Shown here: one piece after another, positions 2,250 to 53,751 of the stretch | How positions within the stretch are numbered: position 1 is the first letter of the stretch | How the letters are laid out: the number at the start of each line of letters is the position of its first letter | Virus record (IMG/VR): IMGVR_UViG_3300006789_000015 | Direction: 5' to 3' (one strand) | DNA: 64,000 nt | DNA from: an uncultured virus (IMG/VR IMGVR_UViG_3300006789_000015) | Lineage: Duplodnaviria > Heunggongvirae > Uroviricota > Caudoviricetes | Notes under the pieces: generated by a model | Databases searched by the model: none | Seen by the model: only the letters and a program-made list of their open reading frames with translations | Told to the model about the DNA's origin: nothing | Program-made: the position numbers and the translations under genes

Positions 2250-2411
2250 CATCCAAACTCTTTTACAATCCCGCGCCCGGTGCTCATTTAGTAAAACAGT
2301 TTATAATTTTAATTAATCTTTTATATATATATCTTATTCTTTTCTATACTCTATTATTTATTTGGTACTTATTTATTTGCTATTTATTTATTCCTTATTT
2401 GTTCCTTATTT

Positions 2412-2452
2412 AAAAAAAGAAAAAGACCCGAAAGACTTTCGCCCTCCGGGTC
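2412..2452 (-). terminator. intrinsic terminator
   Basis: GACCCGGAGGGC-GAAA-GUCUUUCGGGUC 12-bp stem (3 G-U) then U-tract. Confidence 0.85.
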
Positions 2453-2492
2453 GATGGGATGGATATGGATGTATGCTTACCTCCGTAGAGGT
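2412..2492 (-). ncRNA. candidate ~80-nt small RNA
   Basis: Promoter TTGACA(2525-2520)-N16-TAATTT; 5' hairpin ACCUC-UACG-GAGGU; CAUCC-repeat linker; terminator. Confidence 0.6.
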
Positions 2493-2662: not shown

Positions 2663-3064
2663 TTAATAAATATTTTCTTCACAATATTTCCACTCTAGTA
2701 TTTTTAATAGCTTTTTAATATTTATTTCATTTGAAAGAACCGTATCACTAAATGGTACTTCTGCAATATTAATAGGTTTAAAACTGCTTAATCCATACTC
2801 CGTATCTGCTATAGATATGCTTATTATATTTAAAGTCCTTTTTATTACATAGAAATATTCCCCATTATTTAATGTACCCCTTATCTCCCTGTCACTAAAA
2901 AGAAAGGCTGAATCAAGGATATATTTACCCTTAATCAGCCGTAGTCTAGGACTGTTTTTTAGCTTATATTTGCTTGAGGTACTCTTTCCCACTAGGAGTA
3001 AGATACCGTCCTTGAGGATCAATTCCAATGAGTCCGAGCTTCTGCAAGTAAACCTCGTAATCAT
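2663..3064 (-). CDS. hypothetical protein (start uncertain, overlaps ruvB)
   Basis: Fills gap below ruvB. Confidence 0.4.
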   Translation of the reverse strand: MITRFTCRSSDSLELILKDGILLLVGKSTSSKYKLKNSPRLRLIKGKYILDSAFLFSDREIRGTLNNGEYFYVIKRTLNIISISIADTEYGLSSFKPINIAEVPFSDTVLSNEINIKKLLKILEWKYCEENIY

Positions 3065-3905
3065 ACTGGACTGCCTGACGACTCATTCCGAGCTTTGAAG
3101 CTAATTGGGTGAGACGCATAGCCTTCACATGAGCCAACTCCCGCAACAACCGTATCTCTGCTTGTAAAAGGCCAAGCGGCTGAATAGCGAGGTGGTCAGT
3201 GAATTTCTTCCAATCAATCATCTTGAACTTTTTCTTACGTTCAGCGTGACAGTATTGGTTGACTTTCATAGCCATCTTTTGAGCAGAACGAGCATTACCC
3301 CGCAGCACTTTGGAAATCTCATCCATTGCGTTTGCGTCAACAGTAACACCTCTATCAAGACCAAGTTTAACGATCTTGCCAAGTTCCCCAAAGGTGTATT
3401 CCTCCAAGTCAACACGCTCAAGGCGATCTACAAGGGCATGGAATAAGGATTGACCTTCAGTAGTGCAGAATATGAATGTCTGCTGTCTAAAGTTAAAATC
3501 AACCGTATATTCCTCAATCGCAAAAGTATTACGATAATCCTTATTAGGGTTAAGGATGGTTAGCATAGCCATTGTAATATCCTTCGGCAATTCGCTGCAC
3601 TCGTCAAACAACAAGGTTACATCAGCATTATTAGCATAAGGAATAATAACTTGATTAAATAACTGGCGAACATTTTTAAGACTCGCGCAGTTAATCTCAA
3701 GCAATGGTTTGCATTTCTTCTCCCCCTTCTTGACTAGGTTTCTAGCAACTGCTTTAGCCATGTGGGTTTTGCCACACCCTTTAGGAGCAGTAAAGAGCAA
3801 GTGAGGCATAATATCAGTAGCCTTAAAGCCTTTAATGAAAAAGGCTAACTGCTTTTTAATCTGCTCCTGACCTATGGTATCAGGAAATAACTTGCTCGAA
3901 CTCAT
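2964..3905 (-). CDS. ruvB: RuvB-like Holliday junction branch-migration AAA+ ATPase
   Basis: IGQEQIK, Walker A APKGCGKT, Walker B LLFDE, GNAR sensor, C-terminal YEVYL..GLI...PQGR.LT. Confidence 0.85.
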   Translation of the reverse strand: MSSSKLFPDTIGQEQIKKQLAFFIKGFKATDIMPHLLFTAPKGCGKTHMAKAVARNLVKKGEKKCKPLLEINCASLKNVRQLFNQVIIPYANNADVTLLFDECSELPKDITMAMLTILNPNKDYRNTFAIEEYTVDFNFRQQTFIFCTTEGQSLFHALVDRLERVDLEEYTFGELGKIVKLGLDRGVTVDANAMDEISKVLRGNARSAQKMAMKVNQYCHAERKKKFKMIDWKKFTDHLAIQPLGLLQAEIRLLRELAHVKAMRLTQLASKLGMSRQAVQYDYEVYLQKLGLIGIDPQGRYLTPSGKEYLKQI

Positions 3906-3933
3906 GGTAGGTTTTTTTTAATTTATTATTAAT

Positions 3934-4308
3934 TTAGAAGTCAGTCTTTAATGCAACTTGCGCTGATTCTTCTGACACATTCTCGATACAAATGTCAACA
4001 GGCTTTTTCATCGAGTTATGTGCGTTAGTCGTAGCCTTAATAGGCGCACCTGTTAATGTAATCCCCAAGGCAGCCAATCCTTCAGCCCACTTGCGGCTAA
4101 TCATAACAACAGAACCTTCGGGGAGATTCTTGTTAAGGTCTACCAGTTTCACGTTAATGAAGCTGTATGACCCCTTGGTGCGTCCAGAACCGACCTTGCG
4201 TACCTTTTTAGTGGTTCCACTCTTTGGGGCCGCTTTAGGCGTTGCTTTGCGAGTAACCCGCTTTGGTTTGGGACTCGCCTTCTTCTTACTGCTTTTAGTA
4301 GCACTCAT
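3934..4308 (-). CDS. basic protein with Lys/Ala/Pro-rich histone-H1-like N-terminus
   Basis: MSATKSSKKKASPKPKR...; ATG 4308 follows TTGACC-N17-TATAAA (4347-4319). Confidence 0.7.
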   Translation of the reverse strand: MSATKSSKKKASPKPKRVTRKATPKAAPKSGTTKKVRKVGSGRTKGSYSFINVKLVDLNKNLPEGSVVMISRKWAEGLAALGITLTGAPIKATTNAHNSMKKPVDICIENVSEESAQVALKTDF

Positions 4309-4358
4309 GTCTGCCCCTTTTATATAAAACATAAAAAAAGAGGTCAATACTTTTTTTC

Positions 4359-4399
4359 AAAAAAAAATAACCCCCTATAAAGGTGATCTCCATAGGGGG
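4359..4399 (-). terminator. intrinsic terminator
   Basis: CCCCCUAUG...UAUAGGGGG stem then U-tract. Confidence 0.7.
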
Positions 4400-4415
4400 A
4401 AGGCGTATATATGAA

Positions 4416-4604
4416 TTATTCGCCTTTTTCGGCTTCATCAGCCACCATTTTAGCCAACTCGGAAGCGTGTCGGCCAAAAGGTTCTTCTACAATGGCTTGT
4501 TGCTGCCATCTAGGAAGTTGATAGTACAGTTTATGCCATATTTTCTCATATTGCAGAGCTAATTTGGTTCTTTTAATCTTATTGGTGTTCTTCTTTGCAG
4601 CCAT
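4416..4604 (-). CDS. hypothetical protein
   Basis: SD AGGAG upstream, terminator downstream. Confidence 0.65.
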   Translation of the reverse strand: MAAKKNTNKIKRTKLALQYEKIWHKLYYQLPRWQQQAIVEEPFGRHASELAKMVADEAEKGE

Positions 4605-4826
4605 CTTTATATCTCCTTCTATATTAGCGTTATATTTAGTTAATTCAAACTCACAATTATCATCATAATCTTATTAATGCTGTTAACATCTATTTTAATC
4701 TTTAATCTTTTAAAAAAATTTAAAACGCGGGGAAAAAATTCATTAATAGGTATTATTATGTGCTATTTATATAACATATTAATATAATATTTGGCATTAT
4801 TTCGTTCACAAATATTTCGCATTTTA

Positions 4827-5042
4827 TCATTCACAATTAGAAACCCCTTTACTACAAGAGCAATTAGGACAAGCCCCATTATTTGATCTCTTTTGTTTCA
4901 CAATTTTCTTAAAACATTTTTTACAAGCTGTTTTCTTATTACCAATAATATAACTGTCTTGTATCTTTATCTTGGCCTCGCATACCGAGCAATAAGCAAC
5001 AGACTTTTTCCTCCCTCTCTTTTTACCTCCGTTTTCTGGCAT
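4827..5042 (-). CDS. small basic Cys-rich (Zn-binding) protein
   Basis: Three CxxC pairs; GTGTA-N9-ATG upstream. Confidence 0.6.
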   Translation of the reverse strand: MPENGGKKRGRKKSVAYCSVCEAKIKIQDSYIIGNKKTACKKCFKKIVKQKRSNNGACPNCSCSKGVSNCE

Positions 5043-5225
5043 ACAACATATTACACCACAATAATTAGCCCCGATTGTATATATGTTCTATGTCTTTTTT
5101 AAATAATTATTCTAAAAATATAAAAGTGCGGCATAACCCACTTCAAAACACATTAACCCATTATACTCCACTTTATATATATTCCTTTTTATATTCTCTC
5201 TATACTAATCCCTATATACGACCAT

Positions 5226-5252
5226 AAAAAAAGAGGATACTTTCGTACCCTC
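5226..5252 (-). terminator. intrinsic terminator
   Basis: GAGGGUAC-GAAA-GUAUCCUC then U7. Confidence 0.8.
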
Positions 5253-5257
5253 AATTT

Positions 5258-5281
5258 CCTACTAATAGCCTACTAATAGCC
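5258..5281. repeat. tandem 11-bp direct repeat CCTACTAATAG x2
   Basis: Copies 5258-5268 and 5269-5279 plus CC. Confidence 0.7.
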
Positions 5282-5493
5282 TTGTTTTTTAATGTTTTTT
5301 ATTAATTATGTCAGTAATAGAAATCACCATCAGCTTCTATATCATTATCATCCTCCGATAACTTTTCCTTACCTGTGATTATCCAATACAGCATTATATA
5401 TACTCCAATAAAGAAGAACATACATAACCATCCTTTCTACCTCGTTGTATGTTTGAAAGCCCCGAATGTGCGCTCTTATATATGTAAAGCGAA

Positions 5494-5676
5494 TTATACA
5501 TCAGATTGCTCCATTTCTTCGACTCCGTGTTCGTAAAGTAAGCCTAATGTGTCCTCAATGAAGTCTGTGGCTTCTTTGTATGTAGAGAAAGCTCCATACA
5601 TTTTATCCGTGCCACCTTCGGTACTGTGTACCCAATAGATTCCTTCAACAACAGATTTTTCAATTTTAATAGACAT
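5494..5676 (-). CDS. hypothetical protein
   Basis: Small ORF in co-directional array. Confidence 0.6.
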   Translation of the reverse strand: MSIKIEKSVVEGIYWVHSTEGGTDKMYGAFSTYKEATDFIEDTLGLLYEHGVEEMEQSDV

Positions 5677-5741
5677 ACTTTTATTCGTTTATTCCACCGT
5701 GTACCCAAGAAGTATCCGGTTCTACCTCCTTATCCTTTTTA

Positions 5742-5939
5742 TCATCCTTTTTCATCCGTATTCCCATCTTCTTCTTCCTTTCTTTTTACTGGTTTATCTT
5801 TGGGGAAATGATTCTTTGCCCCATGCTTTTTACATAATTCAGCCCACCAATCGGACTCCTTTTTCTTTTCGGGGTTCGCTTCCTTTAGTGAGGTTGCGTA
5901 ACCCTGTTTATGTAATCCCGTTAAATTATGTTCACTCAT
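5742..5939 (-). CDS. hypothetical protein
   Basis: ATGA overlap with upstream ORF. Confidence 0.6.
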   Translation of the reverse strand: MSEHNLTGLHKQGYATSLKEANPEKKKESDWWAELCKKHGAKNHFPKDKPVKRKEEEDGNTDEKG

Positions 5940-6139
5940 CTCAAATCGTTAGCTTGATAATGCCCACATTGTATTAAATTCATTAAGTGGAACTTGCCCG
6001 TTCCTAAATCGTCAGGATTTGAATAGCTTGAGCCAAGGCTTCCAACTTCGGCAGGATCATCGTTCATAGGATCAAACATAGAAGTCCTATGAGAAGCCAT
6101 AATGTAATGTGATCCCATGTATGAAAATGTTTTCATCAT
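5936..6139 (-). CDS. hypothetical protein
   Basis: Abutting ORF. Confidence 0.6.
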   Translation of the reverse strand: MMKTFSYMGSHYIMASHRTSMFDPMNDDPAEVGSLGSSYSNPDDLGTGKFHLMNLIQCGHYQANDLR

Positions 6140-6430
6140 TTAATTGTCCTCTACTGTGCCGTTTTTGTCCAGTTTAAGGCCATTATCATAAGCAAAGTTG
6201 TCTTTTTCATCCACTTTTTTTACTAACTCGTCAAACGTCATGTTATACATCTGTCCTTCGTCCCATTTGGTGAGTGGATGATCGTCGTAATAATTAAATA
6301 TATTAAATAAGCCTTGATTTGTCCTATCAATATCCATAGGGGTTCTACCATCATTCTTGTCATTCATGTGGTCTAGGTAGACTTTCCACTCTTTCCACAC
6401 GTTATTAAATAATTTTTTTTCGTATGTCAT
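6140..6430 (-). CDS. hypothetical protein
   Basis: Abutting ORF. Confidence 0.65.
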   Translation of the reverse strand: MTYEKKLFNNVWKEWKVYLDHMNDKNDGRTPMDIDRTNQGLFNIFNYYDDHPLTKWDEGQMYNMTFDELVKKVDEKDNFAYDNGLKLDKNGTVEDN

Positions 6431-6597
6431 TAGTATGCCTCTACATAATCTTCGTTAGGGTCATACTGCATTGAGCCTTCTAGGTCGCCAATTTTTTCTC
6501 TGACAATGGCTTCGGCTTCATCTCCATCTTCGGCTTCTACAATTTCTGTGCCGCTATTGTAATAGGTCTTTGACCAACTAACTTCGTATTTTCTCAT
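6430..6597 (-). CDS. hypothetical protein, 55 aa (below cutoff)
   Basis: MRKYEVSWSKTYYNSGTEIVEAED...; TAATG overlap. Confidence 0.6.
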   Translation of the reverse strand: MRKYEVSWSKTYYNSGTEIVEAEDGDEAEAIVREKIGDLEGSMQYDPNEDYVEAY

Positions 6598-6599
6598 AA

Positions 6600-6764
6600 T
6601 TAACCCTTCTCCACTGTTACTTCTACAATCTCAAAATGTAATGACTTACCCCGTGCTTCATAAGCTCTACGAACCGCTAACTCATTGTCGTATTTACCCG
6701 CCGTAAGCTCCCAACGCTCATGTCCATCTCCATACCTTAATTTCATCCAGTATCGGTTTTTCAT
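6600..6764 (-). CDS. hypothetical protein, 54 aa (below cutoff)
   Basis: MKNRYWMKLRYGDGH...; GGAGG upstream. Confidence 0.6.
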   Translation of the reverse strand: MKNRYWMKLRYGDGHERWELTAGKYDNELAVRRAYEARGKSLHFEIVEVTVEKG

Positions 6765-6968
6765 TTAGTCCTCCAATACATCAAACCCAACAACCTCACC
6801 ATAATGATTGATAATATCTTCGTCAGGAATGTTTACCCAACCAACGCATCCGTCCCAAAGTACCTGTTTCAAGTCCCTGTCTTTCAATCCTTCAAATTCG
6901 GATTCAGCAAGTAACTCCCTCATCTCGTCAATTTGTTCTTTAGTATATTCTTTCGTTTTAGCTGTCAT
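6765..6968 (-). CDS. hypothetical protein
   Basis: Abutting ORF. Confidence 0.6.
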   Translation of the reverse strand: MTAKTKEYTKEQIDEMRELLAESEFEGLKDRDLKQVLWDGCVGWVNIPDEDIINHYGEVVGFDVLED

Positions 6969-7158
6969 AGTTATGGTTCTCCAATCCGTACATACGTTTT
7001 ACTTTTTTGCGAGTTTTCGCAATTTTAGGACGCTCTCTCTCAATTAAATCTATAATGTCTTGGCAACGATCAACGTATTGGTCTGTGGTCAAATGGATGC
7101 CATCACGCATATCGGGGCATCTATCGTAAATTACTTTTAAGATTTCGTGATTTCTCAT
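6958..7158 (-). CDS. hypothetical protein
   Basis: Overlapping array ORF. Confidence 0.55.
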   Translation of the reverse strand: MRNHEILKVIYDRCPDMRDGIHLTTDQYVDRCQDIIDLIERERPKIAKTRKKVKRMYGLENHNYDS

Positions 7159-7286
7159 TTTCTTCGATTTCTTTTAAATGCTCTATGGTTTCAGCCAACT
7201 GATTTCTTTGACCCCCATCAAAATCATCCATACAAATCATCCCATTAAGTTGACTTTCGTACTTCTCTATCAACTCCCTAATTCTT

Positions 7287-7505
7287 TTACTTTTCGTTTC
7301 TGATTTCATTTCTAATTTTAATAAATTCTGCAATATCATCATGTGTGTTTGACCAATCCATTTTACTGTCAACGATGGCGGCAATGTGAGGCCAAGATTC
7401 ACCTTCTTCTAAATCAAACGAATCTTTTTCCCAATAAGCTACGATCACATGATCTTCGGGGTCATGGTATTTTTTTAAATTTTGAATTAAATCTTTGACT
7501 TGCAT
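7287..7505 (-). CDS. hypothetical protein
   Basis: Array ORF, GGAG upstream. Confidence 0.6.
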   Translation of the reverse strand: MQVKDLIQNLKKYHDPEDHVIVAYWEKDSFDLEEGESWPHIAAIVDSKMDWSNTHDDIAEFIKIRNEIRNEK

Positions 7506-7507
7506 AT

Positions 7508-7756
7508 CTAATACTCCAATCCTTCTTCATACTTTTTAAAATCTTCTCGTTGAGCTTCGTCAGACAACTCTTTCAAATTTAACTTCGACATAAAAGCCAG
7601 AGCATCTTCCTTCGTCTCAAAATTTTGGGGATACATATATTCCACTACGTTATCCCCCCACACCCATCGACCTACAACCCATCTAGGTTTACCGTTGGGC
7701 CATGTGCCAAATTTAAATGCCCGTACATACTTTTCATCAATTTCGACTCCATCCAT
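7508..7756 (-). CDS. hypothetical protein
   Basis: Array ORF. Confidence 0.6.
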   Translation of the reverse strand: MDGVEIDEKYVRAFKFGTWPNGKPRWVVGRWVWGDNVVEYMYPQNFETKEDALAFMSKLNLKELSDEAQREDFKKYEEGLEY

Positions 7757-7761
7757 ATTAA

Positions 7762-8433
7762 TTATATTCCTTTCCCGTAGGGGATTGCTTCTATTCTTTC
7801 GATTTCTTTTTGTAGCTTATCAATGTGGTATTCTTTAATAGCCTCATTGCATTGCTCTTTAGAATCAAACTCTTTGTAGAGATAGATTGTTTCCAGATGC
7901 AGGTCATCTTGAGTAAGGTCTTGAGCCTTGATAATATCTAGCGGGGTTGTACGTCCACTCCACTTATCGGCTAAATTGTTGTATGGATTCGTGAGTTGTT
8001 TCCACACGCTTTCCTCCATGATTGCCTTGGCTGTCCAAAAGTTATCATAACAACGCTGCTTCCATGCGTTAGCTTCCCAAAGCATATACTTACCAGCGCG
8101 TCTCCAGTAGGAATTAGATACTGGGTCAAAAGGGTAGTCGCCCATGCTATCGTCAAAGTAAAGGCCATACCCATCAAAGTCATAACGTGGACTGAACCAA
8201 TTATTAGAACAGAAATCACACTGTTCTGTAATGCCAAGGTTGGCTCCAGAAAATTGTCGCTTCTTTCGTGCTGGGCCGAGAGTTCTCTCATTGTCCCATT
8301 GGTATGTGTACCCCTCGAAAGATACAACCCACTCACCGAGCCTCATGTAGAGTAATTCAGATTCATCTATACGAAAGGCGGGGATGCCTGTCTCAACTAC
8401 CTTTAGCGGGTCTGGTTCTTTTACTGCCACCAT
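7762..8433 (-). CDS. hypothetical protein
   Basis: 223 aa ORF, no motif recognised. Confidence 0.75.
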   Translation of the reverse strand: MVAVKEPDPLKVVETGIPAFRIDESELLYMRLGEWVVSFEGYTYQWDNERTLGPARKKRQFSGANLGITEQCDFCSNNWFSPRYDFDGYGLYFDDSMGDYPFDPVSNSYWRRAGKYMLWEANAWKQRCYDNFWTAKAIMEESVWKQLTNPYNNLADKWSGRTTPLDIIKAQDLTQDDLHLETIYLYKEFDSKEQCNEAIKEYHIDKLQKEIERIEAIPYGKGI

Positions 8434-8526
8434 AATTCATCACTTTCTTCATCGTCATAGTCTAATGTCCAAGTTAATATAACTAAAGCTGCGAAAATCG
8501 CTGTCGTATAAATTAATAGCTCCATT

Positions 8527-8799
8527 CTATAAATCCCATTCTCCTAATGCCGCTTCCAGCACTTGCTCCATAGTAAGTCCATGCTCGTTAGCTTCTGCTG
8601 CCATTGTAAGCGCACTCCACATAACCTCTGCTTCTAATCCCCAAGGTCGAGCCAATTTAAGAGCCTCGTTAACTAACTGAATGTTCTCTGGCCTTGGGCT
8701 TTTCTTGTTTACAGAAAGTTTCTTTTTTTCCCCAATCAACTCTTTAAGTTCTTCGGGGGTGTCCCAATTTTGGAGTGGGGATTTTTCTCCTTTAGCCAT
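8527..8799 (-). CDS. hypothetical protein
   Basis: Array ORF. Confidence 0.65.
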   Translation of the reverse strand: MAKGEKSPLQNWDTPEELKELIGEKKKLSVNKKSPRPENIQLVNEALKLARPWGLEAEVMWSALTMAAEANEHGLTMEQVLEAALGEWDL

Positions 8800-9085
8800 T
8801 TACAATTTCCTTTTCAAAAACAGAGTGGGAAAGCGATGAAGGTTTTAACTTTTTCATAATCGCATCCAACGACTCTTTTACTTGTATGCTTTTACCATCC
8901 ATCATGTGAATCGTAGTGAACTTATTCCAATCTTCATTCTTTACGCTATGAAATGGAGGCTTCGCTTTTTTATATTCGCTCTCATATCCAGCGTGACAAA
9001 CATTGTTCCAGTTTACAAGAGTTGGAGTATAAGCATTTCTCTGTCCCTTGCCGTAGGTTCGTTTTAACAATTTAATAGTTTTCAT
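8792..9085 (-). CDS. hypothetical protein (weak FlbD-like TTIHMMDGKSIQVKES)
   Basis: Array ORF; motif similarity by eye. Confidence 0.55.
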   Translation of the reverse strand: MKTIKLLKRTYGKGQRNAYTPTLVNWNNVCHAGYESEYKKAKPPFHSVKNEDWNKFTTIHMMDGKSIQVKESLDAIMKKLKPSSLSHSVFEKEIVNG

Positions 9086-9087
9086 AA

Positions 9088-9342
9088 TTATTCTGCTAAT
9101 AGTTGATCTAATAAAATTTGTAACTGTTCCTCTCCACCTTCAGCATTTATTCCGAGATGTAACATTTTATATACTTCATACTCCGCGAGTGATTGAGGTT
9201 CAGATTTTCTAACTTCTGATTCATTACTTCTCTGAACGTAAACAACTGACTGTTTCGTATTCTCGTTTGTATAAAATGCAATCCTCATATTAAATTTTAA
9301 ATTAAATTTTGAGGTACTGATGTTGCAATGTTGCTGTTGCAA
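9088..9342 (-). CDS. hypothetical protein (start may be downstream, MRIAFY)
   Basis: Array ORF. Confidence 0.5.
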   Translation of the reverse strand: MQQQHCNISTSKFNLKFNMRIAFYTNENTKQSVVYVQRSNESEVRKSEPQSLAEYEVYKMLHLGINAEGGEEQLQILLDQLLAE

Positions 9343-9737
9343 TGGTTTTGATTCGTATTACAAGCATCTCCAATACTCAATGCCTCTTTAACCTCTGCTA
9401 TAATTTTCGGTATCGCTTTCATGGGTGCTGAATCTTGCAAGTATCCATTAAAATTAAAAACATCCGTTCCCCATCCTCCACCAAAAGTAACTCTTGTGGT
9501 TTGAGAATGATGGCAGTTCCAATACATCCATCCCTGTTGAGTTAAAGTAGGATTATGCTGACTTTTAATATGAACAGTAACCCAAGGTCTTTTAGACCGA
9601 ACATCTTTTAACCTAACGGTAGCTTTACCTTCTGGAAACTGATCCGTAGTAGTTCTATTAATAACATCCTCTTGGCTTATCTTACCAGTACCAACGAGTT
9701 CATCTACTCGACTATTCTTTTCCCAAACAACTTTCAT
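9297..9737 (-). CDS. hypothetical protein
   Basis: AGGAG upstream. Confidence 0.7.
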   Translation of the reverse strand: MKVVWEKNSRVDELVGTGKISQEDVINRTTTDQFPEGKATVRLKDVRSKRPWVTVHIKSQHNPTLTQQGWMYWNCHHSQTTRVTFGGGWGTDVFNFNGYLQDSAPMKAIPKIIAEVKEALSIGDACNTNQNHCNSNIATSVPQNLI

Positions 9738-9740
9738 TTT

Positions 9741-10034
9741 TTATTCTCCTTTTTGTATTGTTTTTTGTTTGTAGTTTTTTAACAACCCTAATTCTTTCTC
9801 TACCCCTTCCTCACTCAACCATCCTTTAACATCGTCGCCCCATCCGAGAGGGTCACACATTCCACCATGCGACCCAAATACGCCCATCTCATATAAACCC
9901 TTTTCATTGCCGTATGAAGCTCCATGCCTAACTATCGAAACGTCATAACCATTCTCTAACTCTACATAGGCTTGGATCGCATCCTTCCCATGTGTTTCAG
10001 ATATGTCGTGAAACTCTAAATCTTTAAACTTCAT
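9741..10034 (-). CDS. conserved phage hypothetical protein
   Basis: SYG..GLYE...DDVKGWL pattern common in phages; start MKFKDL with ATGA overlap. Confidence 0.7.
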   Translation of the reverse strand: MKFKDLEFHDISETHGKDAIQAYVELENGYDVSIVRHGASYGNEKGLYEMGVFGSHGGMCDPLGWGDDVKGWLSEEGVEKELGLLKNYKQKTIQKGE

Positions 10035-10164
10035 TTTTCTGCCTTGGCTTGTTTCTTCTTCCATTCTGACTTCGGGCAGTAATTCCAACCCTCTTTAACT
10101 TGAGTCTCTGCCTGTTTATCAGAAACCCTCTTAACCTTCTTTCCCTTCTTAATTGTTTTCATAA

Positions 10165-10452
10165 TTAATTCTTTTTCGGAGGTCTACCTCTCTTTTTTGG
10201 AATATAAACGTAATCCACAACATGATCTAAAAACCACTTGTAATCGTCCGTAATCCTCTCTAAAACCTTTTTCCCTCTCATTGGGTACTTCGCATAGTAA
10301 AACGTGCCTGTAACCCCCCTCAACGTCTCTATTGACCCTGCTAGAACCGTAGCACCTTTCCCTGTCGGGTTCCATTCCGAATCAGTTTCAGTAAATACTG
10401 CATGAGTAGCCCCTCTGGGTGCTGGTGGATACTTTTGGTCTGCTAATCCCAT
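10165..10452 (-). CDS. hypothetical protein with C-terminal AT-hook-like motif
   Basis: KKRGRPPK. Confidence 0.65.
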   Translation of the reverse strand: MGLADQKYPPAPRGATHAVFTETDSEWNPTGKGATVLAGSIETLRGVTGTFYYAKYPMRGKKVLERITDDYKWFLDHVVDYVYIPKKRGRPPKKN

Positions 10453-10491
10453 AATAAATTTAAAATTAAATTTTCAATAAATCTTTTTAGT

Positions 10492-10560
10492 GGGGGGAGC
10501 GGAGGAACCTACCACGGAAACCTTCCGCCCCCCCCTCCTTCATCGAGGCATGATGAGAGG
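10492..10560 (-). ncRNA. candidate structured antisense RNA (two hairpins)
   Basis: G/C-rich stem around CCGUGGUAGGUU; G-U pair favours minus strand; no U-tract. Confidence 0.55.
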
Positions 10561-10568
10561 AAATTGTC

Positions 10569-10823
10569 TCACTTGTAAGATGCCTCCAAGTTTTTAAAGT
10601 GATCGTCCAACTCGTCAAAGTCAGGCCCACCTGTTCCCATGTCATTAGCGTGTTGTAATGCGCGGAACAAACTTTGAGCTTCTTCAAGGGACTCGCAGCA
10701 TTTAGCCGCCGCCATGTTCTGCTCTCTGTTCGTTGAGATAACATTTTGCTTCTTGCCAGATTTAACGATGCCGACAAAGGTATCTGATTTAAATAATCTT
10801 TTCATAGGTTTAAAGCGTTTCAA
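10569..10823 (-). CDS. hypothetical protein
   Basis: 84 aa ORF downstream of rIIB. Confidence 0.6.
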   Translation of the reverse strand: MKRFKPMKRLFKSDTFVGIVKSGKKQNVISTNREQNMAAAKCCESLEEAQSLFRALQHANDMGTGGPDFDELDDHFKNLEASYK

Positions 10824-10912
10824 TATAAATGCCAGTAATTAACGTAACGACAATCGAGAGAATCAAATACAAAATTAATCTTTCGATTTCTGCTACTCCT
10901 TCGTCCTTCATT

Positions 10913-11818
10913 TTAATTATTCTCTGGGTTGCCGCCTTGTTGCTTCTTCAACTGCTCTATGCTTTTTTTCAAGCCCATCAAAACCGAGTAGACATCTCCA
11001 GCACTACCCATATTTACGTCCTGCTCATTCAGCAAGTCTAAATCTTCCTCTGGAATGTAATCTTCATCCTCCATGTATTCTTCCTCATCGTCATACCAAA
11101 CTGGAGCTTTAACAACCGTCTCACAATGCTGAATAACTTTATATTCACTGGTACGCAACTTTTGACACTCGCAATCGTGAGGCACACTTACAACGTGCGC
11201 TGGATTAATTTCAACCAGCATTAAATGTCCTCCGTTACCAGTGTAACCTTGTGCGTACTCGTAAGTTCCAGCGTGTAGACCAGCACTACAACCATGATTA
11301 GCGTTATCGCTAACTTGATTCCGAGGCATCTTACAAACCTTTCCAACCGAGTTGTCAATCTGACCAGAATAACGATCCGTATAGTCAGAGTTGATTCCCT
11401 TGTAAGCGAGGAAGTTTCCGTCCTCCGTCAAGGGCATTTGCCTATGCTCAAGAAAATTATATAATTCTTCAACGGAACGGTGAGAAGGATTGTCTTGCAG
11501 TTTAGCAATAAACCTTGCAAGGGGTTTGAAATCTAAACCTTTTTCCATGAGGTCAAACAGCCGATCAATAACATGACCATGAAGTTCAGCACCTTCATAA
11601 AAACATTTGTTGTCTTTAATTTCAATCTGTCCTTCGCTGAAATTCGTGATGGCAGATTTTGTATCAAACAACTCCACTAGAGTTTCTCTATCTTGGTTTT
11701 TTAAAGCCTCAATAGCCTTGAGCCAGTTGGGACTTGTGGTAGGCATCGTATAAGGTTTGCCGTCGATTGTGACTGTTAGAAATTTGTCAGTCGCATTGAA
11801 TGGGATATAGTCGCTCAT
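10913..11818 (-). CDS. rIIB: rIIB-like protein
   Basis: DGNFLAYKG, DNSVG, MPRNQV, CSAGLHAG; adjacent to rIIA. Confidence 0.85.
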   Translation of the reverse strand: MSDYIPFNATDKFLTVTIDGKPYTMPTTSPNWLKAIEALKNQDRETLVELFDTKSAITNFSEGQIEIKDNKCFYEGAELHGHVIDRLFDLMEKGLDFKPLARFIAKLQDNPSHRSVEELYNFLEHRQMPLTEDGNFLAYKGINSDYTDRYSGQIDNSVGKVCKMPRNQVSDNANHGCSAGLHAGTYEYAQGYTGNGGHLMLVEINPAHVVSVPHDCECQKLRTSEYKVIQHCETVVKAPVWYDDEEEYMEDEDYIPEEDLDLLNEQDVNMGSAGDVYSVLMGLKKSIEQLKKQQGGNPENN

Positions 11819-11848
11819 AATTTTTTCTCCGATTTTTTATTAATTTTG

Positions 11849-14092
11849 TTAGCCGTTTATATTCATTGAGTCTACAAGATTCATATAATGAGCCAGTTCG
11901 TCAATGAGTTTCTGTTCACTACCTCTGCGATAATGATTGTGTTCAATATATTGAATCAAAGGATAAGTCGATTCAATTTTCTTTAAATGTTTTCCAAAAT
12001 TGTACCCAATAGCTTCCGACTCCGCTTTAATTTCGTCTACCAGATGCAACGTCCTTGTTAATTTCATGTAGTCATTAACTTTCGCATCATCATCGTGTAT
12101 CTGACGAGTTTTTTCGGCAAAAGATAATACTATATTCTCTTGATTAACCAACTTGTGCTTCAGACGATTTATTAATTTTCTCTCCAAATTATATAAAGGT
12201 GAGTATCCCCATCCTTTAGTATCCTCTTGATAAATGTTATAGTCAGCCCAAATTTGTTCGATACCATTTTCTTCAATCAAACGCTTCACTTCATCTTTCG
12301 CCCAAGGGAAAAATGGTTTCCAATTTTTAGCCTTCTCAACTTTACTTTTTAAAGCCTTTTTAAAGCCATAAACTCTTGGCATATCCAAACCTAAATCTTC
12401 AAAACCAGATTGAAAATTTCCAAAACAATTAGCTTTGCTATTACCATAGTAATTATCATCATCAATCAAGAATCTATCTATCATCACATAGACTCCGCTA
12501 TCAGCTTCAAGATCAACTTCGGTTTCTTTCCAATAAGCCGATGCCGTACTCTGCCATCCACCTTTAACTTTATCCCAATCCAGTTCAAAAATCTTGGTAG
12601 TATGTTTGCTGGATTTTGCGTAACTACTTGAATTGCTATTAGTGTTAACGCGAGGTAAGCATGATGCGTCTTTGTAGTCGCTATTCATGTACCTCTCTGC
12701 CAATTCTGACATTTTGTATCTGGTTAAAGAAGAAAGATTGACTACTTCCTCTGGATCAAAGTTGTTCTCTTTACAAAAATCTTTTTCAATTTGATCGTCG
12801 TGAAACGAAATCACGAAAGGCTTTTTATTCTCCTCAATGACCATCGGTAGCAATCGACCAAGAAGCATCCTGTTATTGCCAACATCATTTTTAATAATGA
12901 CGCTATCACTAGAAGCGACGATCCTGTTAATTGCTGCCGCTTTAAACTTTGAGCTTCTCCAAGTTTTGTCTACCGTATAGACAGTACCTTTACTTTCTTC
13001 AAGATAGTAATTGCTGTTATCAATTTTTTTATTGTTAAAAATTAAATCTTTGGCAACGATCTGCTTAACATGATAAAGGTCATTTGTCATATCAAAGAGA
13101 TCATTAAACAAACACTTCGCTTGGAAGTGGGTGGTGCATCCATTAAATCTTTCCAGCACCTTTTTAATAATATCTTTTTTAAGAGTTTTTAATTTGTTGA
13201 GTATGTTCCGCTTGGTATGGGTTGTGTATTGCAAACCTTCGCGGGATGCTGCCATCTCCAAGTCTCCAATATCAAAGTAAATTTCAAGACCGCTTGTGTT
13301 ACAAACTTCATACAGCCCATCTGTATCTCTACTGGAGTAGCCGAACCCTAAAGCATCGTTATCAAGTTCGTAACCAATGTTACCCATAACAGCAACAGCA
13401 TTACCAGATTCACCTGTACGAATTTTCCAGTTTTCACCTTCAAGGATTACTTTCCCTCTTTCCTCGAAATTTATAGTTTGTCCTTTGATAATAGGCTTAA
13501 TATCATAATACTTATAGACTCGTTCTGCCTTTTCTTTAAAAAGATCAACGTCATAGGAGTCATGTACGGGAACCCCAATTTCGATTCCATCGACTTCTTT
13601 TGTGGGGGTTTCCTCCAGAAGAACAATCTTCCCTAAATCAGACTCATCAATATAAGCGTTATAGACATACTTGACTCCATTAGAGTAACTCGTAATCGTA
13701 AACGAATCAGAATAAGAAAACGCAGACTTACTTCCTAGTCCAAGTTGTCCAATATAATCATTGGATTGTCTTTTAGTTGACTCTCCGTAATTAGCGTAAA
13801 TCTCACGAACTTCTTCTTGGGTAAGACCATCACCAAAATCTCTAATCTTAAAGGACATCTCCATTCGGTTTGGGAGTGTTACTTCAAAAGGCGTGGACTC
13901 ATTACCGTTTGCTACATGAGCATCGTAAGCGTTAGCAGAATACTCACGAACAACAGCAAGAATTTTGTCAGAGTAGAGTTGGTTTCGCAGAACATTAAAT
14001 ATGTGAGCGAATCCTCCCTGTTTGATTCCAAAGAAAACGGAGTCTTTTAATTCCCCCGAAACGGACAATGTGTTTTTTTCAAGAACTTTCAT
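11849..14092 (-). CDS. rIIA: rIIA-like protein (GHKL ATPase N-domain)
   Basis: REYSANAYDAH, IRDFGDGL, YGESTK, IGQLGLGSKS. Confidence 0.9.
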   Translation of the reverse strand: MKVLEKNTLSVSGELKDSVFFGIKQGGFAHIFNVLRNQLYSDKILAVVREYSANAYDAHVANGNESTPFEVTLPNRMEMSFKIRDFGDGLTQEEVREIYANYGESTKRQSNDYIGQLGLGSKSAFSYSDSFTITSYSNGVKYVYNAYIDESDLGKIVLLEETPTKEVDGIEIGVPVHDSYDVDLFKEKAERVYKYYDIKPIIKGQTINFEERGKVILEGENWKIRTGESGNAVAVMGNIGYELDNDALGFGYSSRDTDGLYEVCNTSGLEIYFDIGDLEMAASREGLQYTTHTKRNILNKLKTLKKDIIKKVLERFNGCTTHFQAKCLFNDLFDMTNDLYHVKQIVAKDLIFNNKKIDNSNYYLEESKGTVYTVDKTWRSSKFKAAAINRIVASSDSVIIKNDVGNNRMLLGRLLPMVIEENKKPFVISFHDDQIEKDFCKENNFDPEEVVNLSSLTRYKMSELAERYMNSDYKDASCLPRVNTNSNSSSYAKSSKHTTKIFELDWDKVKGGWQSTASAYWKETEVDLEADSGVYVMIDRFLIDDDNYYGNSKANCFGNFQSGFEDLGLDMPRVYGFKKALKSKVEKAKNWKPFFPWAKDEVKRLIEENGIEQIWADYNIYQEDTKGWGYSPLYNLERKLINRLKHKLVNQENIVLSFAEKTRQIHDDDAKVNDYMKLTRTLHLVDEIKAESEAIGYNFGKHLKKIESTYPLIQYIEHNHYRRGSEQKLIDELAHYMNLVDSMNING

Positions 14093-14143
14093 AGTAGTAG
14101 GTTTTTCAGTTTTATCTCCGTAACCATATCGGCTACTTGAGAT

Positions 14144-14172
14144 AGACTAAAGCCTATCAAGATTCTATGCAA
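14144..14172 (-). promoter_or_regulatory. sigma70-type promoter of rIIA operon
   Basis: TTGCAT-N17-TAGTCT; leader opens with GUAGCC/GGUUAC hairpin. Confidence 0.6.
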
Positions 14173-14190
14173 GGACTTTTTGAAAAAAAG

Positions 14191-14376
14191 TCAGGAATTT
14201 AAAGAATGTAACTGAAAATCTTGCTTTTTTTGCCTCCAAAAATCTTTCATCTGGTCGATTGAAGGCACTTCTTTAGAGACAATTCTTAAAGAGTGTGTGT
14301 CAAAATCATCATCAGTAACATAAATTTCCCACTCATCTTCTTTTTGAGTAGGTTTACAGAAAATTTTAATATCCAT
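14191..14376 (-). CDS. hypothetical protein
   Basis: Small ORF. Confidence 0.6.
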   Translation of the reverse strand: MDIKIFCKPTQKEDEWEIYVTDDDFDTHSLRIVSKEVPSIDQMKDFWRQKKQDFQLHSLNS

Positions 14377-14557
14377 TCTTAATTTTAAGTTTTAAATTAA
14401 ACGTCAGGACTATCTTTTTCTTGCTCTATTAATTGATGCAAAATGCCAAAGACAACAGCATCTTCATAGGAAGTTAAAAGAATATCTGAAGGGGTTGAGT
14501 CCACCTTTCTCAAGACGGCTTCAATTTCATCTTCATCTAAATCTATTGTATAAGACT

Positions 14558-16979: not shown

Positions 16980-17581
16980 ATTAACCTTTGGCTTTCTGGA
17001 CTATTTGGAAAAATGTTTTTTTCTACGGAGTAACAATTAATTAATAATTTTTTATTTATTCCCAGCTTTTTTCTAATCTGGTAAATCGGGGTTTCAGATA
17101 AATCACTAAATTTTATTTGAGCTAGGTTGGCTCCACATCTACTTCCCGCCATAAGCCCCATATTAAAAACAAACCTTTCTTCCTCACCAAACTTGTAACC
17201 TTTCGGGTATAAATATTTTGTAATAAATAAAAATAAATTTTTTCTCCAACGAGAAATGTTTTTTGTGCTTCCCATAGTATAACCAATTACAAATGCTTCG
17301 TCTTTTACTAAAAGTCCACGACCAAGGATCACATGAATGCAATCATGAGTAAACAAATCAACGGCTCCATCAAAAAATTTAGACGTACTGTATCTTGGGT
17401 TTTCAAATAGCTTAATTGTTAATGGCACATCTTTTGGGTTGAGTGAAAATGGCTCCATTTCTTCCAAAACTGAATAAAGTTTTCTTGATTTTGATGAAAG
17501 AGGATGTATCCACTCATCAGCCATTCTTTGAAGTCTGACGGCTTCATCCTCCTCAAATAACTTGTGTTCATGGGGGGTCAT
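16976..17581 (-). CDS. Coq4-like metal-binding protein
   Basis: HDCIH-x11-E motif. Confidence 0.5.
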   Translation of the reverse strand: MTPHEHKLFEEDEAVRLQRMADEWIHPLSSKSRKLYSVLEEMEPFSLNPKDVPLTIKLFENPRYSTSKFFDGAVDLFTHDCIHVILGRGLLVKDEAFVIGYTMGSTKNISRWRKNLFLFITKYLYPKGYKFGEEERFVFNMGLMAGSRCGANLAQIKFSDLSETPIYQIRKKLGINKKLLINCYSVEKNIFPNSPESQRLI

Positions 17582-22968: not shown

Positions 22969-22989
22969 TTTATAAAAATTTTAAATTAA

Positions 22990-23277
22990 TTAAACCCCAC
23001 CAGCATCACTAGTCTTATCGTTCTTATCCCAAAACTTTCGATCTCTTCGATCTCTTTCGTAAAAATCTGTATAGTGACAATTCCCGCCTTCAAATTTTGG
23101 ATAGGTTCGAGGACGGGAGGCTGCCTCTAACTCTTTATCTCTTTGGCGACAAATATTCCACTGTTCTTCTTCGTGCCTTGTCCTATAAAGAGGTAAGTCT
23201 ATAGTCGTTCCTTTGGACAGGATAAACCAACACAATTTCAATCTACTACTCCAAGCTAATTTGTTTTTGTCTCCCAT
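22990..23277 (-). CDS. hypothetical protein
   Basis: Small ORF. Confidence 0.55.
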   Translation of the reverse strand: MGDKNKLAWSSRLKLCWFILSKGTTIDLPLYRTRHEEEQWNICRQRDKELEAASRPRTYPKFEGGNCHYTDFYERDRRDRKFWDKNDKTSDAGGV

Positions 23278-29582: not shown

Positions 29583-30430
29583 AGTTTAATATTAAATTCT
29601 TCAAGATATTTATTTCTATCCACTTGGTTATTTCTGTCAACACAAGCTTTTAGGATATAACTCTTCATGTAACAGTCCCGCATTTGAAAAAGTAAAGATT
29701 CTGAATCTTTAGGAAAACATTTTCCCCCAAAACCTCTTTTCCCGTCTGGACCGGGAACTTCGGTATGATCGTGACCTATTCTTTCATCTAAGCCTATGCA
29801 GTGAGCTATTGTTTCAAAGTTTAAATCTTTCTTTTTGCAAAATTCATTTAGCTCATTAAAATAACTAACCTTTAAAGCTAAGAAGCTGTTCCTAGCTAAT
29901 TTTACAGCTTCTGCCGACTCGGTAGAGACAACGTGAATAATATTACTCTTTATTTTATTATTTTCGTAAGCTAAGTCCATTAAAGCTTTAAAAATATCAA
30001 GTGATCCTGCGGTAGAAAACGGCCCTTTATTAATACCCAAAATCCAATCTTTATTATTTACAAAGTCCTCTCTCCAATTCGCTTCAGTAAGAAACTCTGG
30101 CATAAAATTAACACCAAGACGTTTACAAGTCCCTACGGGAACCGTTGATCTTACGATTATATTTTCCAAAGGTACAAGATACCCTTTCAATTCTTCCACC
30201 ACGGATTCTACTATACTAGTATCACAAGAGCCGTCTTCATTAGCGGGGGTAGGAACGCAAACAAAAATTAGAGAGCAACAAGCCAACTCTTTCATGTTAA
30301 GTCCCAAAGGGATACTTTTATCGGGGTCTTTATCATACGTAAAGACTTTAACCCCTTCGCACTCTAATAAAGAGGTAGCTGAACCGACAAAGCCCCCACC
30401 AATAACGCCAACCTGTATTAAGTTACTCAT
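29579..30430 (-). CDS. UDP-glucose/GDP-mannose dehydrogenase family (short form)
   Basis: GGGFVG, CVPTP, RSTVPVG, PEFL.E, GFGGKCFPKD. Confidence 0.88.
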   Translation of the reverse strand: MSNLIQVGVIGGGFVGSATSLLECEGVKVFTYDKDPDKSIPLGLNMKELACCSLIFVCVPTPANEDGSCDTSIVESVVEELKGYLVPLENIIVRSTVPVGTCKRLGVNFMPEFLTEANWREDFVNNKDWILGINKGPFSTAGSLDIFKALMDLAYENNKIKSNIIHVVSTESAEAVKLARNSFLALKVSYFNELNEFCKKKDLNFETIAHCIGLDERIGHDHTEVPGPDGKRGFGGKCFPKDSESLLFQMRDCYMKSYILKACVDRNNQVDRNKYLEEFNIKL

Positions 30431-31136
30431 TAAATTTTAAATTAATATCCAAAGGAGTTTGGCAGTAATAATTATGTTCGGGTCTTTGTTCAAGACGCTC
30501 TTCTCCGTACCTGTCTCCAACCATATCTTTATTAATGTGAGTGAACGGAAGAATTTTTTCAGCATGAAAAGAATCTTGAAACCCGAAAGACTTTCTTTTT
30601 TCTCTCTCTAATAAAGTCTCTAAATTATCTTTTTCAAAGAATTTTTCTTTCGTGATTACTTGAATATTAGTTTCTGGAAAAAGATACTTATCAGTCCAAT
30701 AAGTCAACCAGCCACTCTCAAAATTATTTATATCATCAATGATTTTTTTCGTTAGCAAATAACAATCAGACTCAACATGAATTATTTTTTCAAAATCATA
30801 TTTTCTAGCAATATCGAAAGAGAATAAGAAGCTTCTCCACCAGCCAAAATAAGCTAAATGAGATAATCTACCCAAATTATTCGGAAATCTAATTAGATTA
30901 ACTCTGTCTAATCCATCCCACGGTCCACCACCATAATCTTTAATATGTAAATTATTCGCATCAATAATTTTTACGCCTTCGCAGAAAGATATGTCTGGAG
31001 AGCCGTCATCTATGATTACGAGAGGGGTTTCTTTAAAGGCTTCAAGACTTTTATAATAGTCAATCCATTTTAAGTACCTTCCCCTGTACTCCGATTCGTT
31101 TTTAAAAAACCCCGTGCAAAATATGAAACTTTTCAT
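30423..31136 (-). CDS. glycosyltransferase-like protein
   Basis: IIDDGS, IIHVESD. Confidence 0.55.
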   Translation of the reverse strand: MKSFIFCTGFFKNESEYRGRYLKWIDYYKSLEAFKETPLVIIDDGSPDISFCEGVKIIDANNLHIKDYGGGPWDGLDRVNLIRFPNNLGRLSHLAYFGWWRSFLFSFDIARKYDFEKIIHVESDCYLLTKKIIDDINNFESGWLTYWTDKYLFPETNIQVITKEKFFEKDNLETLLEREKRKSFGFQDSFHAEKILPFTHINKDMVGDRYGEERLEQRPEHNYYCQTPLDINLKFNE

Positions 31137-32510: not shown

Positions 32511-32587
32511 TGGTACTCCCAGTAGGATTCGAACCTACGACCCTCTGTTTAGAAGACAGATGCTCTATCCAACTGAGCTATGGGAGC
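32511..32587 (-). tRNA. tRNA-Arg(UCU) with encoded CCA
   Basis: GCTCCCA/TGGGAGT acceptor, anticodon loop CTTCTAA, GGTTCGAATCC. Confidence 0.95.
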
Positions 32588-32590
32588 TAA

Positions 32591-32677
32591 TGGTGCTAAA
32601 GGCGGGACTCGAACCCGCATAGCGATCCCGCCGACAGATTTTAAGTCTGTTGTGTATACCAATTCCACCACTTTAGC
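32591..32677 (-). tRNA. tRNA-Leu(UAA) with encoded CCA
   Basis: GCTAAAG/CTTTAGC acceptor, loop CTTAAAA, long variable arm, GGTTCGAGTCC. Confidence 0.95.
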
Positions 32678-36740: not shown

Positions 36741-37282
36741 TTCAACCTCATTAAGAGCTTTAATAAAAAAAGCCCTATATAATGTATTACAGTAAATAAA
36801 AGATAAAGGGGAAAAGAAACTATAATTTTTAACGGCCTAATTAAATAAACATTGTACCACTCTAAACTATCCGAACCACTTTTAGAAAGATTAAATTCTT
36901 CCGATTCTGCCTTAAACTTTTCGTAGTCTTCTACTTCTTCTGAGGTTAACCTTTTTATTTCTGTTAAACTCAATTCTTTTAATTCTCCCTTAAAGAATAA
37001 ACTGGAGAATTCTAAAGAGTAGTCACATTTTTCACCACTCCTTATTCCGAAAAATTTTATCTCACAAGTAAGCTCTTGTTGAGAAATTCCATTCTCTTCT
37101 TTTTTATAAATAAAGCCATTGTCAGCTATTTGATATTCGTACATGTCATCAGTACAAGAACCTATTTTATCGCAAACAAAGTGAAAATCTTCCCAGTCCA
37201 TAGACTTCAACTCTTCTTCTTTTTCAGGAAGAGGTAGGGGATGTTCACACACTACATGATCATGAAAAAAATTTACTTCCAC
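36737..37282 (-). CDS. hypothetical protein with C-terminal TM
   Basis: 181 aa ORF. Confidence 0.65.
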   Translation of the reverse strand: MEVNFFHDHVVCEHPLPLPEKEEELKSMDWEDFHFVCDKIGSCTDDMYEYQIADNGFIYKKEENGISQQELTCEIKFFGIRSGEKCDYSLEFSSLFFKGELKELSLTEIKRLTSEEVEDYEKFKAESEEFNLSKSGSDSLEWYNVYLIRPLKIIVSFPLYLLFTVIHYIGLFLLKLLMRLK

Positions 37283-43430: not shown

Positions 43431-43769
43431 GTGGGAAATTTAAATTTAATTATTGCTGCAGAATTAAGTTCTGATCCACCCTCTGAAGGTTTATACTTCA
43501 GATTTATCACAATGGTCGCTAAAACAGACCTAAATTATGAAGTCGTAATAGAGTCAGAAAAGGAAATGGTTGATAATTATTATAATTTTTTAAAAAAGAA
43601 AGGGTGGTACGATTTCGTAGACGATATCATCTTACCAGAGTGGAGGGTAGAGGGGGTAAGGATTGATACAGAAAATAATTACCCTTTAACTATTAAAACT
43701 CCATATATTAGGTGTGAGAATACCCCAAATCTCTTAGGACAAATTAACTCTATTAGAGATTTTGTTTAG
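43431..43769 (+). CDS. hypothetical protein
   Basis: GTGTA-N9-GTG. Confidence 0.65.
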   Translation: MGNLNLIIAAELSSDPPSEGLYFRFITMVAKTDLNYEVVIESEKEMVDNYYNFLKKKGWYDFVDDIILPEWRVEGVRIDTENNYPLTIKTPYIRCENTPNLLGQINSIRDFV

Positions 43770-48305: not shown

Positions 48306-48335
48306 TTTTTAAAAAGTGTTTTTAAATAGCGATTA

Positions 48336-49280: not shown

Positions 49281-49281
49281 A

Positions 49282-53750: not shown

Positions 53751-53751
53751 T

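Follow-up and report, generated by a model that had tools for sequence, protein, structure and literature searches.

A conserved hairpin past the rII genes of an uncultured marine phage shows a loop complementary to the start regions of rIIA and a RuvB-like gene

Whether a hairpin loop downstream of the phage rIIA and rIIB genes could control the gene starts that it is able to pair with is the question raised by a 64,000-nucleotide (nt) stretch of the uncultured virus record IMGVR_UViG_3300006789_000015 (Caudoviricetes), the whole of which is named here the window. An earlier description made from the letters alone (the sequence-only reading) found in this window a G/C-rich hairpin whose loop is complementary to the start sites of rIIA and of a gene that it called ruvB, and it proposed an undescribed RNA module giving feedback on its own operon and co-regulating the second gene. 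The analysis reported here partly supports that proposal. The hairpin is a member of a conserved structured RNA family, with a covarying stem, a conserved loop and location on one strand. As a conserved phage 3'-end stem-loop, it would pair through its GUAGGUU loop with the leaders of rIIA and the RuvB-like gene, which lack a Shine-Dalgarno (SD) sequence, mask their starts and lower their translation; we give this explanation a rough probability of 0.55.

The hairpin, its loop and both target sequences were all confirmed in place (Table 1). On the minus strand, which carries nearly all genes of this window of a large marine phage (G+C content of 35-42%), the hairpin shows a 5' arm at 10535-10521, an apex at 10520-10506 and a 3' arm at 10505-10492, and it is the most stable local hairpin of the window on both strands in a sliding 56-nt scan (-33.2 kcal/mol). 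The fold of 91 nt reaches -40 kcal/mol (z -3.64), and 0/200 shuffles were as good. As the sequence-only reading had noted, no U-tract follows the stem, the next bases being ACUAAAAAG; the hairpin thus shows the G/C-rich stem of an intrinsic terminator and lacks the U-tract right after it. Among the differences listed for contigs of four DNA runs (positions 3800-14200), the loop and both targets are unchanged, and one contig of run X5 (depth 2.56) shows an extra base at 10527, in the G-run of the hairpin stem, which could reflect a fault of assembly or a variation in length.

The loop forms 9 Watson-Crick pairs, or 11 contiguous pairs with one G-U included, with AACCTACCATG at 3913-3903, which covers the ATG of the RuvB-like open reading frame (ORF), and 7 Watson-Crick pairs, or 10 contiguous pairs with one G-U included, with AACCTACTAC at 14103-14094, which is followed by a T and the ATG of rIIA. 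Both counts agree with those of the sequence-only reading, as does the missing SD sequence: nothing resembling AGGAG was found in the 20 bases 5' of either ATG, in a phage group where AGGAG is 3.6-fold enriched ahead of starts and with GGAG ahead of rIIB. When the 115 ORF starts of the window were ranked by duplex energy with the loop, the RuvB-like start was first (-17.8 kcal/mol) and the rIIA start second (-15.0 kcal/mol). The observed Watson-Crick run was reached in 0/5000 composition-preserving shuffles of the RuvB-like leader and in 47/5000 of the rIIA leader. Co-folding of each leader with the hairpin gave no loop-target helix, a form that co-folding cannot represent.

The identities given to rIIA and rIIB hold, with PHROGs matches of 1.9e-117 and 2.9e-73, respectively. 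The label ruvB stands at the level of the family: the protein is a distant full-length relative of RuvB (PDB RuvB, E 3e-13, residues 7-311) with the Pfam domains RuvB_N and RuvB_C above cut-off, and its score of 96 bits is far short of the 282 that the NCBIfam equivalog demands, for which reason it is called RuvB-like here.

The comparison was extended to relatives. A megablast of 6 kb against phage records gave no match, and neither the exact hairpin pattern nor single-protein scans (rIIB, rIIA, RuvB-like) matched viral contigs; the nearest record, G001, does not cover window bases 1-40000. The relatives surveyed, found through rIIB at 42-60% identity, are 160 loci (numbered with L), half of them on viral contigs and half on metagenome contigs (80 each); they are not independent of each other, and some contigs occur in both sets. 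The gene order rIIA, rIIB, RuvB-like is widely kept among them. AACCUAC(U/C) recurs directly 5' of the ATG of rIIA and the RuvB-like gene in many loci, and AACCTA is found within 22 nt ahead of only 34/2453 ORF starts, mostly of these two genes. G/C-rich hairpins right past the rIIA stop, often two in tandem, repeatedly carry the complementary word GUAGGUU in the apex. Loci with a promoter of the type TTGAC...TATAAT about 35 nt ahead of the rIIA ATG, whose rIIA mRNA would be leaderless, have adjacent rIIA and rIIB, no hairpin and no complementarity. The cultured relatives PA5oct, VH7D and Xoo-sp13 show purine-rich SD-like letters before the rIIA start in all three cases, and their sole run of more than 6 Watson-Crick pairs is one of 9 bases in VH7D, inside the rIIB coding sequence; none of them serves as a model for the hairpin system.

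The hairpin family was defined with an alignment of 21 hairpins that includes that of the window (A2), from which the covariance model R1 was built. The search with R1, which the sequence-only reading had suggested as a check, recovered 20 training rows and one new match without the loop core in the first set, 21 in all at E <= 1, and 27 matches in the second set. All 48 matches are on the gene-sense strand, and 28 of them were not used for model building. The window hairpin scores 30.6 bits (E 0.0017) and is itself one of the 21 training rows. Two candidates, L009:15571 and L095:15088, show neither the loop core nor a matching start and were set aside as generic hairpins. In the alignments A3 and A4, compensatory changes were found at 13/13 stem pairs, with 82.0% and 92.5% of cells paired, and the stem covariation scores are 0.704 (A3) and 0.851 (A4) vs 0.23 shuffled, values that 0/500 shuffles reach, and a shift of the partner by 1-3 columns lowers them to 0.14-0.26; both alignments were fitted to the structure and are biased in its favour, and the margin is large. 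In the loops of A2, UAGG is invariant and GUAGGUU nearly so. The rIIA stop was mapped for 29 family hairpins: 25 of them begin between -40 and +90 nt from it, and five enclose the stop codon. The hairpins of the window, L032, L145 and L081 lie instead 19-381 nt past rIIB, not near the rIIA stop, and in L111 and L114, where rIIA is outside the locus, the hairpin is also just past rIIB. No Rfam family matches the hairpins of the window or of the relatives: the window shows no match at gathering score, and the best match in 10380-10660 has 19.1 bits vs thresholds of at least 58. The earlier description of an undescribed RNA hairpin is consistent with this result.

The match of the loops to gene starts was examined with the central 20 nt of each distinct hairpin, compared with the segment from -22 to +6 of every sense-strand ORF of at least 45 amino acids (aa) in its locus. 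The start of rIIA or of the RuvB-like gene ranks first, at 7 or more Watson-Crick pairs, for 26/40 hairpin rows and in 20/31 loci; by gene, rIIA is best in 16/31 rows and the RuvB-like gene in 13/32. Seven further rows have neither of these starts in the locus. The RuvB-like start is a better match than rIIA in the window, L001, L005 and L081. A test for which no hairpins were chosen used 95 distinct loci and set every rIIA start against a 95-nt segment that surrounds and follows the stop of that gene: a Watson-Crick run of at least 8 was found in 21/95 loci, vs 4.9% of shuffled leaders and 5/95 with a parallel decoy, and a run of at least 10 in 6/95, vs 0.29% and 0/95, respectively. Matched start and end pairs are better than mismatched ones in 5000/5000 permutations (62 loci). 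Runs of at least 8 stop at the A of the AUG, or at its AU, in 12 of these 21 loci. The complementary segment includes the rIIA stop codon in L013, L025 and the group L016/L084/L092/L118.

In L009, AACCU(AC) abuts the ATG of four genes, at 6915, 12865, 14675 and 16454, which encode rIIA, the RuvB-like protein and proteins of 295 and 241 aa, and the target set may be larger than two genes. Many relatives (L043-L054, L007, L019, L029, L032 and others) show at the rIIA or RuvB-like start TTGAC(A/T), about 17 nt, a TATAAT-like hexamer, 6-7 nt and the ATG; a promoter of this type so close to the ATG implies leaderless mRNAs for genes that elsewhere have an AACCUAC leader.

Judged from these comparisons, loop and target have changed together in some lineages. 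In L029 the rIIA AUG is preceded by AAGAAAUCCUAC, with which the loop sequence GUAGGAUUUCUU forms 12 pairs (0/5000 shuffles). L081, the closest relative (rIIB 60% identical), has its hairpin in the orthologous place, ahead of the same conserved gene, and differs from the window both in the loop (UUUAAUGGGUAAU) and in the RuvB-like leader (AAAACCCAUUAUG), with the pairing kept: its loop UAAUGGGU and RuvB-like start ACCCAUUA form an 8-base pairing that ranks first of 30 starts (124/5000 shuffles). In L005, UCAUGGUAG pairs with CUACCAUGA over the RuvB-like AUG, as in the window (13/5000 shuffles). Pairing was also found in L099 (11 bases, 0/5000 shuffles) and in the group L036-L042, where ACCUACUACUACA pairs with UGUAGUGGUGGGU in 13 pairs, two of them G-U, just 5' of a U-tract terminator; L025 has 10 pairs at its stop codon. 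Two conserved words, one always at the AUG of genes that lack an SD sequence and the other always in the apex of a covarying hairpin, are complementary in otherwise unalignable sequence, and several lineages changed both; a contact of the 3' hairpin loop with the start regions at the RNA level is the most economical reading.

The contact may be pictured as follows. With the G/C-rich stem-loop as its 3' end, the rIIA (or rIIA-rIIB) unit would expose the loop, and the GUAGGUU core would pair with the short leader that abuts the AUG of rIIA and of the RuvB-like ATPase gene. With rIIA the pairing would be formed within one mRNA, on the assumption that both segments are on one transcript. On the RuvB-like start, at a distance of 6.6 kb, the RNA bearing the hairpin would have to act in trans, in the form of a stable fragment of the 3' end. 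Small RNAs (sRNAs) that pair over an AUG usually block initiation, and as the duplex here adjoins or overlaps the AUG, masking of the start site is the favoured outcome: the start codon region would be hidden from the 30S subunit and the translation of a few early genes lowered, as feedback or as a timed shut-off. Pairing in vivo, accumulation of the hairpin RNA and the repressive effect are what we infer from the pattern.

Several results weigh against this explanation, and they begin in the window itself. AACCTAC occurs 8 times vs 6.45 expected and AACCTACYAY (at most one mismatch) 13 times vs 12.9 expected, so that the enrichment at starts on which the sequence-only reading had set its check did not appear in a scan of the window. 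As the loop is rich in G and U, 114 minus-strand sites show at least 10 contiguous pairs once G-U is allowed, vs a mean of 94 for 40 shuffled loops. With these counts near chance, the pair counts first reported prove nothing by themselves. A helix of 11 bp within a 15-nt loop would also be strained. In the family as a whole, at least 5 U in the next 8 nt follow only 7/38 hairpins, and since U-tracts are mostly missing, as in the window, a transcript 3' end at the hairpin is assumed. In 11 of the 31 loci with a family hairpin, neither the rIIA nor the RuvB-like start is top-ranked. Loci that use a different word are individually weak in the energy test (L025, L032, L059 and L078, p 0.07-0.11), and those without the core, as a group, reach p <= 0.05 in 7/67 cases. 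The fine-scale covariation of loop and target, the other check suggested earlier, is marginal in the main class: 135 cells are paired at the six flanking pairs vs a shuffle mean of 128.1, and 91/2000 shuffles are as high. Nor does this position-specific test back the claim that both G-U differences keep pairing, as the position 5' of GUAGG is paired in 13/31 vs 13.6 in shuffles. Since the loci are related, pooled p-values are inflated and independence is overstated. The comparisons that could separate RNA from DNA do not separate them: G-U vs A-C at the first flanking positions gives 16 vs 15, and sense vs antisense duplex energy gives 12 vs 14 (27 strong loci).

This last result bears on an explanation at the level of DNA, in which a word of 7-12 bp, inverted, at the start and end of rIIA would be a protein-binding or recombination site that lies by chance in a terminator loop. 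On DNA both partners are indeed one word in opposite orientation, and no RNA-specific signal was obtained; a covarying hairpin nonetheless presents the 3' copy in its apex, the 5' copy is in every case directly next to the AUG, the group L036-L042 reaches 13 bp only with its two G-U pairs, and no candidate binding protein was identified. We regard this explanation as very improbable. An inherited accident is hardly more credible: the hairpin would be a plain terminator or stabiliser, AACCUAC a separate signal such as a RegA-like operator or a non-SD enhancer, and their complementarity a chance legacy of one ancestor. Such an accident would agree with the chance-level statistics of the window, with the marginal fine covariation and with the case of T4, where the RegA protein acts as a repressor on the start sites of rIIA, rIIB and replication genes. 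Against it stand the two conserved complementary words amid unalignable sequence, a loop that is kept while the stems turn over, and the lineages that changed both partners; in addition, no RegA homologue was found among 104 window proteins with PHROGs or among 13 with Pfam, in the 64 kb of genome covered. Neither of these two explanations accounts for the display in the loop or for the double changes.

A different possibility accepts the pairing and denies that it represses. The rIIA mRNA would be closed end to end and protected from 5'-end-dependent decay, or its stop would be brought beside its start, where terminating ribosomes would open the duplex and re-initiate, which would amount to activation or coupling. 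The rIIA stop codon is inside the hairpin in 5/29 cases, the complementary segment holds the stop codon itself in the lineages named above, and targets without an SD sequence may need other aid to initiation; since the stop codon lies inside the pairing segment in several lineages, a role in stabilisation or in termination and re-initiation is a serious alternative. However, a long distance separates hairpin and rIIA stop in the window, L032, L145 and L081; the RuvB-like start cannot be joined in cis; and pairing over the AUG would be expected to block initiation rather than assist it. A reported precedent for pairing of the 5' and 3' ends that affects stability is the hbs mRNA (PMC5737220). 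On balance we consider a non-repressive role unlikely, and start-site occlusion by the hairpin loop is the explanation that we retain.

Control by loop-target pairing has precedents in phages. The c4 RNA of P1 and P7 and the CI RNA of P4 are cut from operon transcripts and act through loop-target pairing on genes of the same phage. The sequence-only reading had invoked these RNAs, and the comparison goes no further than an analogy: c4 and CI control immunity in temperate phages, and the window hairpin, with no sequence or structure match to Rfam families, is not a member of the c4/CI family. The sRNAs of the CpxQ, SroC and DapZ type, which derive from 3' untranslated regions (3'-UTRs), share a terminator with the upstream mRNA and act on other mRNAs; their seeds are in single strand 5' of the terminator and the sRNAs depend on Hfq, whereas here the proposed seed is in the hairpin loop. 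Complementarity to the start of a gene on another transcript, as in trans-acting sRNAs, was found for the RuvB-like start (rank 1/115, 0/5000 shuffles). The post-transcriptional control of rII and DNA-metabolism genes at their starts in a large virulent phage recalls T4 RegA, except that RegA is a protein effector and the proposed effector is an RNA loop. A widespread control layer of this kind in large uncultured phages, in which the hairpin closing a gene or operon would have an apex antisense to the SD-less leader of that gene and a few others, a stop codon in the pairing segment would couple termination with initiation, and RNA alone would do RegA-type work, is a tentative idea that we think rather doubtful.

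Bacterial mRNAs offer the nearest likeness to the pairing with rIIA. The 3'-UTR of the icaR mRNA of Staphylococcus aureus contains a short motif, complementary to the translation start region of the same mRNA, that hinders initiation (PMC3868564). The likeness is in the 3' segment complementary to the start region (for rIIA, the 10 pairs with one G-U; in the relatives, the 21/95 loci with at least 8), with a single transcript assumed here. The C-rich motif of icaR pairs with the SD sequence and creates an RNase III substrate, whereas here the targets lack an SD and the pairing, with an A/C-rich leader, abuts or covers the AUG; also unlike icaR, the 3' partner is in a hairpin apex, a second target gene is 6.6 kb off and the system is that of a phage. 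The loop of the OxyS terminator kisses the start region of fhlA (PMC11979758), and the likeness is that a terminal hairpin uses the unpaired bases of its loop for direct pairing with a translation initiation region; OxyS is a free-standing bacterial stress sRNA with two loops, whereas the hairpin described here is at the end of a protein-coding unit and has one loop, or a tandem pair in some relatives. Long-range anti-RBS folding (RBS, ribosome-binding site) was measured in Bacillus subtilis (PMC12697547). No description of such an element at rII genes or in phages was found in open-access papers and preprints.

The remaining features of the locus are collected in Table 1.

Table 1. Features of the hairpin locus and of its two putative targets, in window coordinates.
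Feature	Coordinates	Strand	Description
RuvB-like AAA+ ATPase gene	2964..3905	-	313 aa; ATG at 3905; 6.6 kb beyond; without SD
Target 1, AACCUACCAUG	3903..3913	-	RuvB-like start region including AUG; 9 Watson-Crick pairs followed by one G-U and a further pair
AT-rich promoter-like recurrent motif AAAAUUUAAUUUUAAAUUUAUU	10453..10482	-	Between main hairpin and ATG of the next gene (10452)
Main G/C-rich hairpin	10492..10535	-	12-bp lower stem and 2-bp upper stem, 15-nt apex
Anti-start loop segment 5'-CGUGGUAGGUU	10506..10516	-	Complementary to both start regions
Small hairpin	10537..10560	-	Directly 5' of main hairpin, same intergenic gap; minimum-free-energy structure
Two small ORFs between rIIB and hairpin	10569..10911	-	33 aa, hydrophobic (10810-10911); 84 aa (10569-10823)
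rIIB gene	10913..11818	-	301 aa; starts 30 nt past rIIA; GGAG upstream; PHROGs match 2.9e-73
rIIA gene	11849..14092	-	747 aa; ATG at 14092; without SD; PHROGs match 1.9e-117
Target 2, AACCUACUAC	14094..14103	-	Ends one base ahead of rIIA AUG; 7 Watson-Crick pairs, one G-U and two more pairs

The main hairpin sits, together with the small one, in a 116-nt gap 3' of the 33-aa and 84-aa ORFs, for which no family match was found in Pfam, PHROGs and NCBIfam scans. The next gene past it encodes a conserved protein of 95 aa and is preceded by the AT-rich promoter-like motif, and because this motif is promoter-like and recurrent, it sets the hairpin at the 3' end of the upstream unit. The layout of the motif between hairpin and next gene recurs in the relative L081. 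A canonical U-tract terminator is located at 2401-2456 (minus), downstream of the RuvB-like gene cluster, and its long U-tract indicates that the phage does use such terminators elsewhere. A second strong intergenic hairpin, at 4369-4424 (minus, -24.9 kcal/mol, loop GGAGAUCACCUU), is found just ahead of the gene starting at 4332.

The AT-rich, partly palindromic motif TTTAATTTAAAATTT and its variants are found 0-10 nt ahead of several ATGs in the window and in many relatives too. The window sites, all on the minus strand, are 9289-9310, 10453-10482, 14378-14401, 22976-22990 and 30430-30446, and with at most three mismatches the motif has 61 matches in the window vs 44 expected. It is a candidate phage promoter that would give very short leaders. 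Long matches of other gene starts to the region after rIIA are due to such an AT-rich, partly palindromic motif more than 55 nt past the stop, and they were discarded as a separate feature.

Elsewhere, the window contains adjacent tRNA genes for Arg(TCT) and Leu(TAA) at 32511-32677 (minus), and one of the eight AACCTAC matches is the T-arm of the tRNA-Arg. It also contains a thymidylate synthase gene at 37273-37911, a sigma-factor-like gene at 39246-40112 and, at 43734-58818, a long series of genes for sugar-modifying enzymes: a glycosyltransferase, epimerases, an aminotransferase, methyltransferases and an acetyltransferase. Among the relatives, L017 shows a manA RNA motif at 17023-17201 (Rfam RF01745, 69.5 bits).

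rIIA is a classic gene of anti-defence and lysis timing. If the hairpin loop acts as proposed, it would give virulent phages a compact, RNA-only means to set the level or timing of two early proteins, rIIA and the RuvB-like ATPase. Such 5'/3'-end pairing, of which a few bacterial mRNAs give examples, would then be conserved and evolving in marine phages, and it would explain the regulation of phage genes that lack an SD sequence.

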